A stretch of 64,000 nt of DNA from the NCBI GenBank assembly GCA_964499705.1, contig CAZCME010000001.1, positions 8,943 to 72,942 on the forward strand. Direction: 5' to 3'. How positions within the stretch are numbered: the first letter of the stretch is position 1; each line of letters begins with the position of its first letter. The DNA is from an uncultured bacterium (GTDB taxonomy: Bacteria > UBA8481). Below the pieces are notes generated by a model. It was not told where the DNA came from. It worked only from the letters and a program-made list of their open reading frames with translations, and ran no database searches. The position numbers and the translations under genes are program-made. Below, piece after piece: positions 58,801 through 62,273 of this stretch.

Positions 58801-60819
58801 GCGGGCAATGCGGACACGTCCGCGACCCGCATTCTCGTGATCGACACGATCGCGCGCGTCACGCCGACGGCTCCCGCCGACGGGCTCCGCACGAACAGCA
58901 CGACGCCCGCTTTCACATGGACCGGCGACGGCGACGCCTTCACAATCCAGGTCTCGAAGGTGAATACGTTCGCGACGATCGCGGCGACAACGACCGGATC
59001 GATCTACAGCTATACGCCGACGCTTGCCGCGGATACGTATTACTGGCGCATCTTCGTCACGGACGCCGCCGGCAACGCGGACACATCCGCGACGAGATCT
59101 CTCGTCATCGACACGCTGGCCTCGGCGACATTGACCGTCCCGGCGGATAACCTCCGCACGAGCGACTCGCGCCCGATCTTCACATGGACGGGCGACGGAG
59201 ATACCTTCACGATCCAGGTCTCGAAGGCGAACACGTTCGCTTCGATCGCGTACACGAATACGTCCTCCGTGATGACATACCAGACGACGCTCGCGACGGA
59301 CACATACTACTGGCGTGTGCTCGCTTCGGACGCGGCCGGCAACGCGGGCGTTTCGGCCACGCGCACGCTCGTGATCGACACGAGCGTCGTCGTGACGCTC
59401 ACATCACCTGCAGATCTCTTCGCTCAGACGGAGACGAAGCCGACATTCACATGGACCGGCGACGCGGATACATACATCCTTCAGATCTCGACCTCCTCCT
59501 CCTTCGCGACGATCTTCGACTCGAAGACGACCTCGTCTACCTCTTACACACCTGCGCTCGGCTACGCGCTCGACACGTACTACTGGCGCGTTACAGGTCA
59601 GGACAACCTCGGCAATGTCTTTACGACCGCGTCGAGAACGCTCTATCTTGTCCTCATTCCGCCGCCTCCGGCGCCGAACGATTCGACGACGTCCTTTGCC
59701 GACGTCATAACGGTCTCGAGTTCGCTCGGTTCCTCCGGTCTCCGCGTGACCGGCACGTCCATTACGCTGTCGACCGGCTTCAGCGATTCCGTTCTCTCCG
59801 TCGTTTTCGAATATCGGACGGTGATGGACGCGACATGGCGCTCGTGCACGATCGCGACGAACAGCGGCTCGAACCCGGATACGAAGGGGCCGCTCTGGAG
59901 CATCTACTGGGATGTCTCGGCACTGCCCGAGGACACGTACTACCTCCGCGCGACCGCGACCAAGCTGGACGGAACGATGGACTCCACACCCTCCACGATC
60001 AGCCTGATGAAGAGCGCGATATTGCCGCAGATCCAGGAGTGGCACGACACGGCGCTGAACCGGCACATCCGCCGCCAGGCCGTGATGCGCGCGACATGGG
60101 ACACGATCATGATTGCCGACGGCACGATGCTCATTATTCCGCCGACCGCGATTCCGGGGACGGACAGCATGTGGGCGCGGGTCACGGCCCATGCCGCGGC
60201 TCCTGCGGAAGCGCCCGCTCCGGGCGCCGGCAGCGTTCTCGTAGCCGGAACATCAGGCACGTATCGCCGTTTCGAATTCGAGAACGGCCAGTCGACGTTC
60301 AACGATTACGTCACGATCGGGATGCCGTATTCCGAAGCCGGGCTCACCGTCACCGAAGGCGAACTGGCCATCTACTATTACGACGCGGGCCTCCAGAGCT
60401 GGGTCAAGACCGACAGTTGCTGGGTGGACACGGTCCGGAACATGGCCTGGTGCCGCGTCCGCCACTTCACGGACTTCGCCGTCTTCGGAGCCGCCGCCGC
60501 CGGAAATCTCGGCAGCGTCATCGTCTATCCGAATCCGTTCGTTCCCTATGACAACGACGTCCAGACCGGCCAGCCGTTCGTGCGGGGCGACAACACGACC
60601 GGCATCATCTTCTCGCGGGTCACATCCACGGTCGACATCGACATCTACACGATCGCGGGCCGCAAGGTCTCCACGATCCATGCGACGAACACGGGCGGCA
60701 ACGTCCAATGGGATGTCCGGAACGACGAAGGCCGTGAAGTCGCCTCCGGCGTCTACTTCGCCATCATCCGCGCGCCGAACGGCGAGCGGAGCGTGCAGAA
60801 GTTCATGGTGATCCGATGA
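31837..60819 (+). CDS. giant secreted multi-modular alpha-glucan-active protein (9,660 aa): signal peptide, GH13 alpha-amylase catalytic domain, CBM48-like x2, GH57-like catalytic module x2 plus one divergent GH57-like module, CBM25/26-like x2, CBM20-like x3, CBM9-like region, >25 FN3 domains, 32 tandem ~91-aa FN3-like repeats, C-terminal T9SS-type sorting domain
   Basis: Single uninterrupted ORF in the six-frame track. N-terminal signal (MKTRRSPSQPSYALLASLFHRFILLASLFLVVTSVEA). GH13 regions I-IV (..DAIWISNPF.., ..GFRVDAIKHV.., ..FGEAFS.., ..FADNHDVARF..). GH57 regions (..FLWHMHQP.., ..LPHDGDNYGG.., ..SCYWYWDG..) occur twice. C-terminal ..VIVYPNPFVPYDN....GIIFSRVTSTVDIDIYTIAGRKVSTIHATNTGGNVQWDVRNDEGREVASGVYFAIIRAPNGERSVQKFMVIR is T9SS-CTD-like. 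Confidence 0.8.
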   Translation: MKTRRSPSQPSYALLASLFHRFILLASLFLVVTSVEAWTLADQQMPTSWAGHSYTPSPGDWRYFGVYQVMTDRFYDGNPSNNTAHNYSTDFGAPSGQLPTEGNRRTIGGDFQGMKENIDYIKSLGYDAIWISNPFMGTEANGYAPTTYNCIDPKLGTVQEFRDLVDAAHARGMYVIVDMVGNHFANWFTDHAFNGAGYGTPTYATDASKRYGATFNDAIGEGNFHNYGNISNWNAPWDLEHGELVGLDDLITEDAYVRNYVIDHYVNMIKAFDIDGFRVDAIKHVNINDWALICSGIRAGAAAVGKSNFYMFGEAFSGSHDAVGYYTGNKAGTGTKIMNGMMDYAMYQQGVPWMLFNDQWGLKNWVAGMNNASYDMGQGNGTTVWNFGNMNVHFADNHDVARFLSSGDWDRMLSVQGMLTMIEGLGAMYYGGEQAFNTAGTDGRGAYGALYDHPFQWDNAVGDNVNMSFWLYKKIAKMMAARRRIGAGLGTGTTLLDPQNGIFAFRRGNDAFVAINGTNMTQSATFNVGLSGTWTNLVDGSSGSGPSLAISLPKYEVGVWIRNIADPVLEPMVTDVSPANGALTGATTLTITFDQNMDPASTIAAASIAPDPGGTWNVTGATLTRTGMTVQPGVTYVVKVAKTATNATGKAMYGGFVSRFKGSYSSPVVNGNVITFNYQGGATAKVKGNWAITGGSNGVYTAAYNAAWTGPAVDMIQSNGLWTATITLTENTVFEYGFEINGAWTNDPVNTNHAVNGNDRFTSGAGTPAGPDSVPPVFGGLTSATDAGTSGKVNLAWSAATDTSTPIKYNIFWTNNAADSVAKSYVDMTPNAVVSSATSYQVTGLTNGAQYWFVVRAEDAKTGAGGPGGGNQETNLVDRTATPTGLASPIVNGNVVTFAFSGGGLGKVKGSWIVTGGSNGNYTANYDSTWNAGATTNMVLSGSVWRCTFTLPANTTFEYGFEIDSAWTNDPLNTNHAANGNDKFTTGAASNGDTTPPSFAGLATAVDSGTGGRVSLAWAAGTDATGPVRYNVYWTNSAAAQVSKSYVDGTPDATTTSTSYLASGLTNASQYWFVVRAEDSAFGSGPNGGNQDTNLVDQTATPSGASNTAPTANAQNTTTPQNTAKVITLTGSDPEGSSLTFAIATQPSNGTLSAITAINATSASVTYTPNTNFNGNDAFTFTVNDGLLTSASANVGVNVVSGARPPIYISFLWHMHQPKYWPDEPATATEGRTDYGFSIRTIHTDRTGPYTSWPIDAIQNAMNAGLANSGAQVTFTGSLTENLNDYEAAGWAFGGWKNRWREGMQWRTALNNPRLDITQFPYFHVLQPLIGDKWTREHIRLFQNMYQGTFSAAAQSKGMFPTENCVSDFLIPAWKDNGIDWVIVDNVHFDRTALGYPWSSGGNLYEMNGADILNPNPNDWVQLNGLWAPTKISARWGHQPHYMQYVDPTTGTVRKMIAVPGSRYLGNEDARGGYGALQYDAVLSQLEPFNTDPAHPILVVLPHDGDNYGGGTDGYYHGNFSAMISWLQSNPTRFQLITIQDYLSMFPPDQSDVMHIEPGGWSGADNGDPEYKKWNGDPAADGYSPDRNSWMTLMAAENRVEHAERLQPTNGNVATAIRKMMVGMTSCYWYWDGSPPWDYHVTRACNEAVGLVDPIIAGGGADLQPPTVFLPQRDPYNPGGKEWNIQQASNLKVFTPAYDVSGLRRVELKYRVDDDGNNPIADVANEVYAGGAGVGAWQTLSMTVDAFPASRSNPQPIYRANIYAATIDGTNLANKLVDYYVEAEDNAGLITKTVIQHVKWGGTGGGGGGTTIWSPSAPTSSDTITVTWTKASKLHWGVNNWVAPNAVYWPAGSVAWDAQSIESPLDGSFKIVIGPFNNPAQTVTEVNIVFHNNDGTWDNNGGLNWKIPILVDTAPPARPATPILTSGNTTIDLTWAANGEADLNGYRLYRALAAAGPHSLIATLARTATTFNDSGLSNGTTYHYVLRAYDNAANTSDSSISTSATPSGVDVTPPSITSGLSALSLQQAVRITWNRNLESDMDSYVIFRRTSSGVFTQAALADSVTSTYTDTGLSAGETYTYLIRARDRSGNLADSSATATAVAQPNTPPAAPSGFYALPWDSSVRLRWNRNTEGDFAGYRVFRAGVTGGPYTQISGLLTDTQFTDSGLANGTTYFYVLAAVDTAGGQSSYTTEDSTTPRPLINVLFRVDVNGLSGVTIVRIAGDLFTPSWIPTANPLRDLGGGIWGETFAMPISTALQYKYVTNGANWENDFATASGKREITVVSMTADSRMFVNNKWNVAGDPAPTSPPGLQATATSQKVTLRWSNSFEYDIVGFNLYRSTTSGSGYSLIASLGTETGYNDTNVINGDTYYYVMAARDQVGQIGLFSAQVQATPGANQPPAVPNGLNATAGDRRVTLVWNANAEVDLAGYHLYRATVAGGPYAKINTDTILGTSYVDTGVTNGDTFYYVLRSVDIYDSQSAYSTEDSATPRAPDTTAPPVPTGLVATPASGQVTLNWNHVVAADSTGYNVFRGISPSGPFGKINGSLASTNSYVDLTVSNGVWYYYNVRSVDMVNNQSESSATVSAQPQTAVGGIEDRTIDGSFFDWKYTDVRALDTYVDNNYLWWDGFANHPVGYDPSRDLTAVYSREGTSDYFFRVDFQDLALGVEQTNMNLYLALDWNSATGQAFFPDFVDAQTSQPWELIIAIYDGGTTGKTLWKPDWTTIASPNVRASFNSQWDAVEIAVPKSHLTNLGWVSGQKIHLQVFTTRDGTNSGAGEVASLPDITDAMPDSYTQDAYLNGVISTESTVGRAKYSVILHGNQSLNPGGDINKWIYDAVAVTPNGNPSGYHRALQTMEQCNTPVNIHVSGSLAAVMDMANTTNPLNDGPTFNQRIADFVDDDWNDGRKGHIIGGVYAEHIMPYFRDDTSIGITINSRAQELKTDVLTSFYSLSRHPKVFWIPERVVDGQTLDNVILDRRTNTPTGYTTTILDNLTHIYYWLGSSFAHTNEFKLLRINGVNVFQINDHYDDRKFWAQDNAANYEVRTRLLDLARAADQEQVMIVFDDWEAYAGRSFASPNTIHDGPDNFDVSMKWIAQHPWVEVVTLEQLLDRNWTPVDAGTNLTYPKSTYQWLLHASEMGYDNWYWGSAQEENFSQQIPLLTGDRYSSPAVLNPIPSGKRYGSIWDAGTILRDVWSDIQALPGNQLKRLSEQGYIHLIYETAWHDEDISDKAWDPVTRVFTNPDNTWDGTSYWAYDLHGHVRHMGYLAEAARWADSVSAGAQSALTVVQTKDLDYDGESEYILKNSRVFGVFENDGGRMVLGVSYDTAQGGFVMVGNIITNAPSEGEEEDGSRRISAFADMNNSAYINANYSVATGTDSIVFTSPDGLIRKDIRLQHGSGTFEAAYRENLTGPVYIRNGLIANLHEMTYTGERYVQIVGATNGSYYGVKNTRAGGEIRLNFGGTTFNSAFTDGTMDNTNSPFVKAVEVTGNGNFTMSLTLNTDDTSVILDTPPVPSGLSATGGNGQVYLSWSPVSSASLAGYHVYRGTVNGGPYSKISDTRAQTNYTDTGVSNGTTYYYVVKSVSVRGASSANSNQATATPNPPTDTPAAPTGVTATAGNTEITVNWTATDTTLAGWHVYRSAAQGGPYTQVNGSILTGGSFTSTALTNGTRYYFVVKAQSLSGLLSAYSSEVSETPSASANVTTVLTAPSAGQTLTGAVPFTATCTAPQGVNRVEFKVDGALAGTATTPEQAGGDSAAGVWGVGSKTITIDGVNTAGEWTTACRIARDPAWDHANVMNGAWATHETPFDYTDLYAAWDATYLYIGIQIVDVTDIKDPSNAGSSNGTPARAMNLPQWLAFDVAPGGYTGVNGAGANTAEYDAWKKGQLFGGGTGVDTQIYFASNFWQGPFLIPYRNGFFPDSNTIGKQLGVFHGASGQGLAGTEVIGLDGTNFVAQGHNTGRNSFFELKIPLSYLGGPDLATRTIGIMVGQGDGTNASGVDCIPDDPATLNTQGVEVYNSPKEWADVDIFTVPFAKIGTSTGGSGASNTYRVIVNTANYQDGARVVTATGIANGAGGSASSSANVTFANAAPPPPAPTGVVATPASTLVALNWSAATGATGYNVYMATVSGGPYTKQNTSLVAGTQYSIPSLTNGTTYYFVVTAVNGQGLESPYSSQVQGIPAAGVNVVFTVDMRNAGAYSSVQVAGNQFTPAWTPSATPLANNTGGTWTVTRSFPSGTQIQYKYVKDSTGWEADFATTSKNREITVADQGGGVMYVDNVWGQEGNAAPAGPTGVTLTAAQSSITVSWTRSTSFDVISHCVYRSQTSGGPWNLVHETSTVNSWVDTGLTNGTRYYYVVRAKDRANQYSAYSTEVNATPGNDPAPAAPTGLAATAGVNQIALSWNPNTEPDHSGYNVWYTVSGGNGVPVKINGAIIPTAGYTHTNLDPNLTYTYYITCVDSGANEGPASATVARQPLNGGSQQPIYIAYQWHMHQPIYWPYENIRTTYTTRTNYAYVRDVLAWPDRVDAYTHNPVDAVANHMASKPNWGAQISYSGSLQENINNMAAASDGYFPGWNNRYAEGHGWTTTLGNRRVDLVSFGYHHPLLPFIDYRDARLQIQMHRRITTTTFGNPYSLGMFPAESAFSERIIPQLLDEGLQWVMVDNLHLDHCNKNFPWAAGEKINPPNRADAVNPPQGTYINLSCQTNTNYNVSPWGLRPHYAKYVNPNDGTERKMIIVPLERSLGYDDSYGDRTPQARLQAFLPHNTDPAHPLLVVLAHDGDNAGASGFRYYVETMGWLAGADPNQFRFTTVQDYLQMFPPDVNDVVHITDGSWVGADLGDQELKKWLGDPYQSGVVNFEQGFSSDWNSWMVITAGKNRMLTAEAIAPASGDIGGIVYKNGNNTDKAWAEFLVGEASCFWYWDGTVQWDEQPSRAVANAMVYADPIIASSPGTDNIAPNIFSLQREPYNPGATEAFKGVQPSDFQVFTFIYDVNAVSNATLYYRIDADGENPIGDNANEIYAGGAGVGPWVALTMETRVYAMPPAAQIQPQYRAEIYRAFINGLSNTLVDYYVTATDGRGNVSKSDIYHCYIGDPNSGGGGGRWTPANPTSSDTITITGDKAGKLHWGVNGWVAPNGVYWPSGTTTYDAQSVESPLDGTFKIVIGPFNNAAQAVTRVDFVFHYNDGTWDANSGLNYRIDITNDTTPPAQPTGFTSSPGNGFVQLGWTLGAGDVSSYKIYRGTTSGGPYSQVVSTGRVATYTDTAVVNATTYYYVLRSADATGNLSDTTTQISATPSGVDTTPPAKPSNVNATASEFGATVSWTANNEYDLAGYRIYRSITAGSSHVLIETTSLTSRSHSGLNPADTYYYVIVAFDSSGNASDTSTEKAIKPLAAQPPAAPTGVAITAGNAVCTITWNANGEPDLAGYNVYRAQGSSTAPYVKVNGSTVVVTNYANSGLTNDTTYYFRIRAVDTAGAESDSSAIVSATPVAGITVAFRVNVTGFSPGVVQIAGNQLTPTWTPSANPMTNEGANIWKIEKTYPVGTVIQYKFVRDTTTWESDFPAGASTNRDITVVDQGGGKMYVNNTWNVDGDAIPATPTGLQATAGAGAVNLTWNAVTVFDLDGYCVYRATAVGGPYAKIANQITLTSRNDSGLVNGTTYYYYVTAEDSAGQASGASSTVNATPIIPDTTSPAVVSGVDATVQGSTIRVAWNPNGETDVVGYRVYRSASANGAYTQLNGTIETDSDYSDSTVSVNTVYHYRVRAQDASGNLSDTSSADSASVTGNPIGVDGDPSEWTGTGPTTDRTYSIINGQWIWRDPPADQRTDATDPDSNYDLTEVRFTGDVNGVSFLGKFTDISASNLPFISLAVDKDQLAGSGEEWFSSNTDMTMADTGRRDYEIVINSNKTGYYGVGDNNWNWSDTGSSFISPGNNVIEANFQWYSLGITLPKLVRFTMGVAQHDGAGSAAEIFGSDALDAVTTATGNTWTEISDGQLDYNFDIGFNADGKVNSAPDTPTWIAPADGANLTSPLITFQWNQSDTDGAIAVSPYYEIQYATNSGFTTGLVIDSGAGNLTSRDRTFSGSGTYYSRVRMRDDFLWSGWSATRTFSVVDSTAPDGSASDWLGVASTTANESTVDKGEWIWTDANTDERTDGTDPDGNYDLKELRLKGDTSYLFILAKFRDITTTTLPYLAIGVETDQIYGNGQKWFGNGSDLQMDTNAWRELELVMNNNNVGFYSTINSWVWNDSGARTISTTNDLIEARYVWSDLKIVLPKKLRFSAMTAENDAGNVKDRYNADALDVVTQYSGNTWGEVQDTVLNFWVDLDFNRSGLINTRPGKPSLIAPLAGVTLNTSTVSFQFAWSDADSGAIANPKIELQLSTDSAFQTIVATCVEFDLDTLCAASLSSGGNFWWRVRTFDDFETSVWSDTRDFRADFYAAPITLLEPPDGIDTNTSFVRFAWTQPLDDLSGLDSFLLEIGTSSTFDTYQQTRTVDSNSYQLLKQGETVYYWRVRAVDRAGNMATSATRWLRLDTSVTVSAVTPTAGAATNDSTPTYTWTGNGSVYVFQLAPDATFFTLQDSVTLPGTTYAPSGATYHAHGGHYWRVLAWDTVGNSASTASRAIGIDTSVSVNFGAPANSTDTNQQRPVFSWSGDADTWTFEISRFTDFSVLYDNTTTAALTYQPGANYAGDTYYWRVRGQDTFGNTATATYRQIVIDTGITVNQTSPIDGVETNDATPTFAWTGDADTYIVEIATDAGFAAIMDSKTTNGLSHTPAANYNQGLFYWRIRAQKTAGSSKTTPTRTFRIDTSVVVTLVSPVANLETRSLRPVFTWTGDALSYNFQASTSATFATLVDTTISSGLIRTAAADYRADTYYWRIVARDTVGNIETSPVRILIVDTGVTVSSSTPADGFRTNDSTPTFTWTGTGETYILQVSRFTGFDTLTDVVTTAASTYTPSAYYGAAAYHWRVIASDDAGNIETSVDRIVTIDTSITVALSSPSNVFRTNSTAPAFAWTGDADTWTLQVARDAAFTAIVENRTQTLASFTGAGYSADTYYWRVSGADYAGNRDTTSSRSFTVDTTAAVTLTSPAASTVTSDSTPSFTWTGDGDTFTIQVSSSSTFATIQDSAISGGYTYTPSARYYGSGVWYWRVLSRDVAGNAETTASRTFTVDTGVVVTLSTPADGARVNFVTPTFAWTGDANIYVIQVSTASTFASLVDSKTTTALNHTPAFAYPADTVYWRIVGFDTVNVETSASRVLVIDTQVAVSLTSPANGSRTNDSTPAFAWTGGGDTWNIEVSRFSNFGSLLDAATLAGTTTYTPAQYYPADTLYWRVTARDSVGNSATTASRSLVIDTSVVAALSSPDDLFQTNDTTPAFVWTGDAQTWLLQVSRFTNFSVLFDSSATASTSYTTTILYPTDTYYWRIAGQDDVGNRETTAYRTLIIDTGLVVNLATPAANLETKSLRPVFSWSGNADTYIFQLSASAAFATILDSQTGATATFTPVADRAADTYYWRVVAKDNAGNTETSASRVLFIDTAPPSAPALASPADSATTRNVITVFTWTGDADSYAIELARDSVFASVVLAETRPTVSATSPQLGRDTYWWRVRGYDDAGNAGPWSGMRALFVDTLITVSGTTPADGARTNDSTPTFTWTGNGDTYTIEVSRLANFAALTIQATTTASTFTAGGSLGADTYYWRVSAVDSFGNAGVSTTRSFAVDTSATVTLATPADNTVTNDTTPSFAWSGDGDTWTIQVSRLANFSTIYDASTSAVATYTTGGYYGADTYYWRVVSLDQAGNSETSGSRIIVIDTAVSSTLATPADSTRTSDSTPSFTWTGSGDTYRLDISKSITFAPLQATATTSAVSHTLTTYLGQDTYYWRIVSLDVAGNTDTSAGRMLVIDTSATVSLTSPAAGTRTNDSTPAFSWSGEADTWTFEIARIADFSALVESRVTAATSYTPSTLYYGHDTYYWRVSGSDVAGNSAVAASRTLYIDTLISVSASSPAANAETLVLRPAFAWTGAADSYRFDLSRSATFATLVETSAMTAQGLTIASSLTADTYYWRVAAWDAAGNADTTAARTLFVDTGVTVASAPPADNTRTNDSSPSFTWAGDGDSYTFQIARDTSFGAIVDSRTTAAAAYTTSFYYGADTYYWRVLATDDAGNLASSASRLIVIDTGVVIALSSPADGALSNDSTPAFTWTGDADTYVLQVSSTSTFAAIFDSRTTSATTYTPSSGYATDTYWWRVIGYDALGNVETTASRTFRLMTAVAVNLLTPSDSFYANVLSPSFTWTGTGDTYTFQLSSSPTFATLAESVQQPTLSRTTALSLGAGVWYWRVIARDVAGNTDTAVARALVIDTSASVALATPADATRTSDSTPSYSWTGDGDTWTVQIARDAGFATIVQQSTVNVQTYTATILPEDTYYWRVIARDKAGNSDTAAARSFIVDTFVSVALDTPGDLYKSRDVTPNLFWTGTGDTYRVEISRSATFAPLYETATLAASPFNSAVVYPGDTYYWRVIATDQAGNFDTTAARRFIVDTTAPDTSTTVTLTTPADQHDTSDSTPTFLWSGDADTYIIQVARDTSFAALVDAATLSGAVSYTTAGYYAQDTYYWRVIGFDVAGNYDTTPARRIAIDTTVNVALASPSDAIQTLDTRPTFTWTGDGDTYLLELAFNDNTFATLHDSQLSSALTYRPSAAKYMGAGIYYWRVTVWDRLGNQKTASTRSLFIDTEVRVTLSTPADGDSTTNNRPTYTWAGDADTYWLQVSTSAVFATIYDSKYQAANSYTPGFSSSGGTYYWRVTGYDQAGNIFTTTGRSLLIVNALTLSLTAPADNIRTTDSTPSFTWTGNGDSYTFEISKSSSFATTIDTKNLTVTNYAPAGYYGADTYYWRVIGRDSAGNTFTSPTRTLGIDTIAAVSLTSPASGTRTKDTRPILVWSGDATSNASDVFTVQVSTSLSFATIAATTSGYVSSYQPTLVADTYYWRVLLVDAAGNADTSATRILVIDTIARVTPTAPADGLRTNSTTPAFTWTGDGDAFTIQVSKVNTFATIAATTTGSIYSYTPTLAADTYYWRIFVTDAAGNADTSATRSLVIDTLASATLTVPADNLRTSDSRPIFTWTGDGDTFTIQVSKANTFASIAYTNTSSVMTYQTTLATDTYYWRVLASDAAGNAGVSATRTLVIDTSVVVTLTSPADLFAQTETKPTFTWTGDADTYILQISTSSSFATIFDSKTTSSTSYTPALGYALDTYYWRVTGQDNLGNVFTTASRTLYLVLIPPPPAPNDSTTSFADVITVSSSLGSSGLRVTGTSITLSTGFSDSVLSVVFEYRTVMDATWRSCTIATNSGSNPDTKGPLWSIYWDVSALPEDTYYLRATATKLDGTMDSTPSTISLMKSAILPQIQEWHDTALNRHIRRQAVMRATWDTIMIADGTMLIIPPTAIPGTDSMWARVTAHAAAPAEAPAPGAGSVLVAGTSGTYRRFEFENGQSTFNDYVTIGMPYSEAGLTVTEGELAIYYYDAGLQSWVKTDSCWVDTVRNMAWCRVRHFTDFAVFGAAAAGNLGSVIVYPNPFVPYDNDVQTGQPFVRGDNTTGIIFSRVTSTVDIDIYTIAGRKVSTIHATNTGGNVQWDVRNDEGREVASGVYFAIIRAPNGERSVQKFMVIR
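31960..33530 (+). other. GH13 alpha-amylase-type catalytic domain of the giant protein
   Basis: Conserved regions at 32161..32240 (GDFQGMKENIDYIKSLGYDAIWISNPF), about 32662..32690 (GFRVDAIKHV, nucleophile Asp), about 32770 (FGEAFSG, acid/base Glu) and about 33016..33045 (FADNHDVARF). Confidence 0.8.
35441..36840 (+). other. GH57-like catalytic module 1 of the giant protein
   Basis: HMHQP at 35476..35490. ..MFPTENC.. (putative nucleophile Glu region). VVLPHDGDNYGGG at about 36328..36366 (GH57 region IV HDDGEKFG-like). SCYWYWDG at 36711..36734 (region V CNDAYWHG-like). Confidence 0.6.
40270..41300 (+). other. divergent third GH57-like module of the giant protein (possibly non-canonical or non-catalytic)
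   Basis: ..SVILHGNQSLNPGG.. in place of HQP. ..VFDDWEAYAG.. at 41023..41049 in place of HDDGE. ..YDNWYWGS.. at 41257..41280 in the region-V position. Confidence 0.4.
45270..46700 (+). other. GH57-like catalytic module 2 of the giant protein
   Basis: QWHMHQPIYW at about 45301..45330. ..MFPAESAFSE.. VVLAHDGDNAGAS at about 46153..46191. SCFWYWDG at 46582..46605. Collinear with module 1. Confidence 0.6.
50830..59650 (+). repeat. in-frame tandem array of about 32 FN3-like repeats (period ~275 bp / ~91 aa) inside the giant gene
   Basis: Each unit carries ..TP.F.WTGD(A)DTY..QVS....FA......T....YTP.....DTYYWRV.A.D.AGN..T...R.L.IDT.. The (Y/W)(Y/W)WR(V/I) core occurs 32 times between about 51060 and 59580 at 265-285-bp spacing. 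Nucleotide copies differ mostly at wobble positions. Confidence 0.85.
60530..60816 (+). other. T9SS-type C-terminal sorting domain (Por secretion CTD / FlgD-Ig-like) of the giant protein
   Basis: Last ~90 aa: YPNPF...(G)IIF........DIDIYTIAGRKV.........G..V.WD..N..G..VASGVYFAII....G....QKFMVIR is the canonical CTD pattern. Confidence 0.6.
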
Positions 60820-62273
60820 CCTTGTTTGTTAACCACAAAGACACAAAGACACGAAGAAGAACGAAAAAATATTATTTCGTTCTTCTTCGTGTCTTTGTGT
60901 CTTCGTGGTTATTTGCCGTTGCTTCCGATGCCGCCACATTTTCGGGCGCCGGATCCACGGGTGCGCAATTTCTGGAACTCGGCGTCGGAGCGAGGTCGGC
61001 GGCGATGGGGGAGGCTAATGCCGCGTGGGCGAACGACGTCTACGGCCTCTACTACAATCCGGCGGGCGTCGCCCGGTCCTCCCGATTCGAGGCCGGCTTC
61101 GTTCATAACAATCTCTTCAGCGAAATTTCCTACAATTACCTCGGCTATATCCATCCACTTTCCTACGGCGGGACGATCGGCGTTGATCTGACCTATCTCG
61201 ACCTGGGCACCGTCAAGCGCACCACGATCGCCTCGGGAACCGCCGGAACATTTCTCGGCACGGCCAGCGCTCATGATTTCGCGGTGGGTCTCACATACGC
61301 GCGGCCCTTTCGCTCCTTCCTCGACCTCGGCGGAAAGATCAAGGTCATCAACGAGAGCCTCGACGACAGGAGCGCGACCGCGGTCGCTGTGGACCTGGGC
61401 GCCACCTGGCGGCCTCCGGTTCAAGGATTGACAGTCGGTCTCTCCGCGTCCAACATGGGATCCTCCCTGAAATTCGTCCGCGAATCGGAGGACCTGCCAT
61501 TCACCGTCCGTCTTGGCGGCGGATACAGGAACGCCACGGGCCGATGGGGCGTCGTTTCCGATGTCGTATGGATCTCCAACCAGGATGTCGAGGCCAAGGT
61601 GGGCGGCGAAGTCTGGGTCTGGCCGGAGCATTTCGTCCTGCGGGCGGGATTCAACGCCGCGAATGAAGTGACACGCGGCGGAGCCACGGCCGGAGCGGGA
61701 TTCCACTGGGACGACCTTGCCGTCGATTACGCGTTCACGCCGTACGGAGATCTTGGCAACGGCCACCAGGTGTCCTTGACGTATCAGTTCGGACAGCCGC
61801 GTCGCGCGCCCGGCGGCGCCGTCATCAGGCGCGCCGATCCGGCATCGACATCCGCGACCGCGCCCCAGCCCGCGGGCTCCACGCGTCAGCAGTACATGCC
61901 CGTCGTTGCGCAGCAGCCCAACTCGCTCCTGGCCATGCCCTTCCGTTTCCAGTCGGGAGATCCTAAATTCGTCTGGCTGGGATCGGCCATCCCGGAGGTC
62001 TTTCATCATCTCTGGAAAAAGTCGAACCTTAAGGCCGCCGATGCCGTGAGCGCCGCCTACACAGTGGAAGGCGATTACTGGGTCGTCGACAATCTCCTCA
62101 TCATCACCGCGAAGCTGAATCACGAAGGATACGAAGCGAAGACCTTCCAGTGGCGCGGCGACGTCAGTCGCGCGTTTCTCATCTTCGACGACATGGTTCA
62201 TGACGTGAACAACGAATTGCTGTTGCGTGGCGTTTCGATCCCCATCCCCTCGTGGCCGCGAAGAAGGCGATAA
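60816..62273 (+). CDS. PorV/PorQ-family outer-membrane beta-barrel protein (T9SS cargo shuttle-like)
   Basis: Mature N-terminus ..GAGSTGAQFLELGVGARSAAMGEANAAWANDVYGLYYNPAGVA.. matches the PorV-family hallmark (..aqFL.lgvgARa.amGgAf.A.adD.sa.y.NPAGla). Alternating beta-strand pattern follows. ATGA overlap with the stop of the giant gene. Confidence 0.6.
   Translation: MTLFVNHKDTKTRRRTKKYYFVLLRVFVSSWLFAVASDAATFSGAGSTGAQFLELGVGARSAAMGEANAAWANDVYGLYYNPAGVARSSRFEAGFVHNNLFSEISYNYLGYIHPLSYGGTIGVDLTYLDLGTVKRTTIASGTAGTFLGTASAHDFAVGLTYARPFRSFLDLGGKIKVINESLDDRSATAVAVDLGATWRPPVQGLTVGLSASNMGSSLKFVRESEDLPFTVRLGGGYRNATGRWGVVSDVVWISNQDVEAKVGGEVWVWPEHFVLRAGFNAANEVTRGGATAGAGFHWDDLAVDYAFTPYGDLGNGHQVSLTYQFGQPRRAPGGAVIRRADPASTSATAPQPAGSTRQQYMPVVAQQPNSLLAMPFRFQSGDPKFVWLGSAIPEVFHHLWKKSNLKAADAVSAAYTVEGDYWVVDNLLIITAKLNHEGYEAKTFQWRGDVSRAFLIFDDMVHDVNNELLLRGVSIPIPSWPRRRR
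60831..60910. promoter_or_regulatory. about 36-bp-arm inverted repeat (aaccacaaagacacaaagacacgaagaagaacgaaa / tttcgttcttcttcgtgtctttgtgtcttcgtggtt, one mismatch) with an 8-nt aaatatta loop, 12 nt after the giant gene stop and inside the 5' coding region of the porV-like ORF
   Basis: Read directly from the sequence. Candidate intrinsic terminator/attenuator or RNA-processing structure. Its two arms encode the K/R-rich n-region and the hydrophobic h-region of the predicted PorV signal peptide. Confidence 0.55.

Follow-up and report, generated by a model that had tools for sequence, protein, structure and literature searches.

A stable repeat-family hairpin encodes most of the export presequence at a giant gene–PorV-like gene junction

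Results

In the window (the whole 64-kb stretch of DNA analysed here), the gene for a giant secreted protein is followed by a gene of the PorV/PorQ family. The start codon of the second gene overlaps the stop codon of the first, as the initial annotation had it, and this overlap is kept in 7 of 11 orthologous loci. Just 3′ of the giant gene, and within the 5′ coding part of the PorV-like gene, lies a long near-perfect palindrome (Table 1). Its stem begins 10 nt past the TGA; the spacing of 12 nt reported earlier was counted from ACCAC.

Table 1. Features of the giant gene–PorV-like gene junction
Feature	Position	Description
PorV-like gene ATG	60816	overlaps giant gene's TGA
Giant gene TGA	60817-19	
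Palindrome/hairpin	60830-60911	82 bases; 36 pairs, one A·C mismatch, 8-nt loop
Inverted-repeat arms (repeat search)	60830-60870 and 60871-60911	41 nt each, 95% complementary
Stem mismatch (RNA folding)	A60837·C60904	single; splits stem into 7 + 29 pairs
Loop (RNA folding)	60867-60874	8 nt
Right arm of stem (RNA folding)	60875-60911	
Mature N-terminus, PorV-like protein	from ~60945	conserved; GSTGAxFLELGVGAR

The palindrome is a real and very stable hairpin, found both by repeat search and by RNA folding. The minimum free energy of the segment 60800-60940 is -66.3 kcal/mol, compared with -27.4 ± 3.5 for dinucleotide shuffles, none of which folded equally well (0 of 200; z = -11.1). The GC content of the hairpin is 0.37 vs 0.61-0.69 in the flanks (the surrounding region is ~64% GC). 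A 33-mer from one arm has no other copy in the window with up to 3 mismatches allowed, where the chance expectation is also 0.

As had been proposed, the PorV-like gene has no usable 5′ coding region other than the one in which the hairpin lies. Any start codon 3′ of 60915 would come too late to provide a signal peptide, since the conserved N-terminus of the mature protein begins only about 30 nt further on. In-frame translation across the hairpin gives MTLFVNHKDTKTRRRTKKYYFVLLRVFVSSWLFAVASDA|ATFSG, identical to the reading in the initial annotation. Of the 39 residues in the presequence, 28 are encoded by the hairpin; excision of the hairpin leaves a presequence of only ~10 residues. The left arm reads as the charged, basic n-region of the export signal and the right arm as most of the hydrophobic h-region.

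Comparison of orthologous junctions gave a different picture from that expected of a conserved element. Conservation of the palindrome at homologous loci, on which the earlier dual-use proposal had been made to depend, largely failed: although the genes are conserved, the hairpin is missing at every one of the 10 orthologous junctions. One of these junctions carries a decayed relative of the hairpin, one an unrelated repeat hairpin and four other 7-8-nt periodic tracts.

Discussion

The hairpin is one copy of a (CACRAAGA)n/(TCTTYGTG)n family dispersed across many phyla. Members are found 10-60 nt past stop codons with the purine arm first (56:4), and their arms contain stop codons in no frame. 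With so widespread a family behind it, the hairpin is no device peculiar to this locus. We therefore reject a bespoke attenuator and, with none of the 10 orthologous junctions carrying the hairpin, a conserved locus-specific device as well. A role as a terminator or 3′-end barrier is plausible, and any terminator or attenuator activity is putative; a canonical 3′ U-tract is absent.

The division of the arms into the two halves of a signal peptide stands as a description of the translation, but not as a dual-use design. With a single T in the left arm and a single A in the right, neither arm contains a stop codon, and whichever frame or strand is translated, a hydrophilic peptide is followed by a hydrophobic one. 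The resemblance to a signal peptide is thus intrinsic to the hairpin family, and the n-/h-region reading is no evidence of design.

The family, though widespread, has apparently gone undescribed so far. The same arrangement of stop/start overlap, hairpin and presequence recurs in a second and unrelated gene family, where the hairpin stem carries compensatory substitutions.

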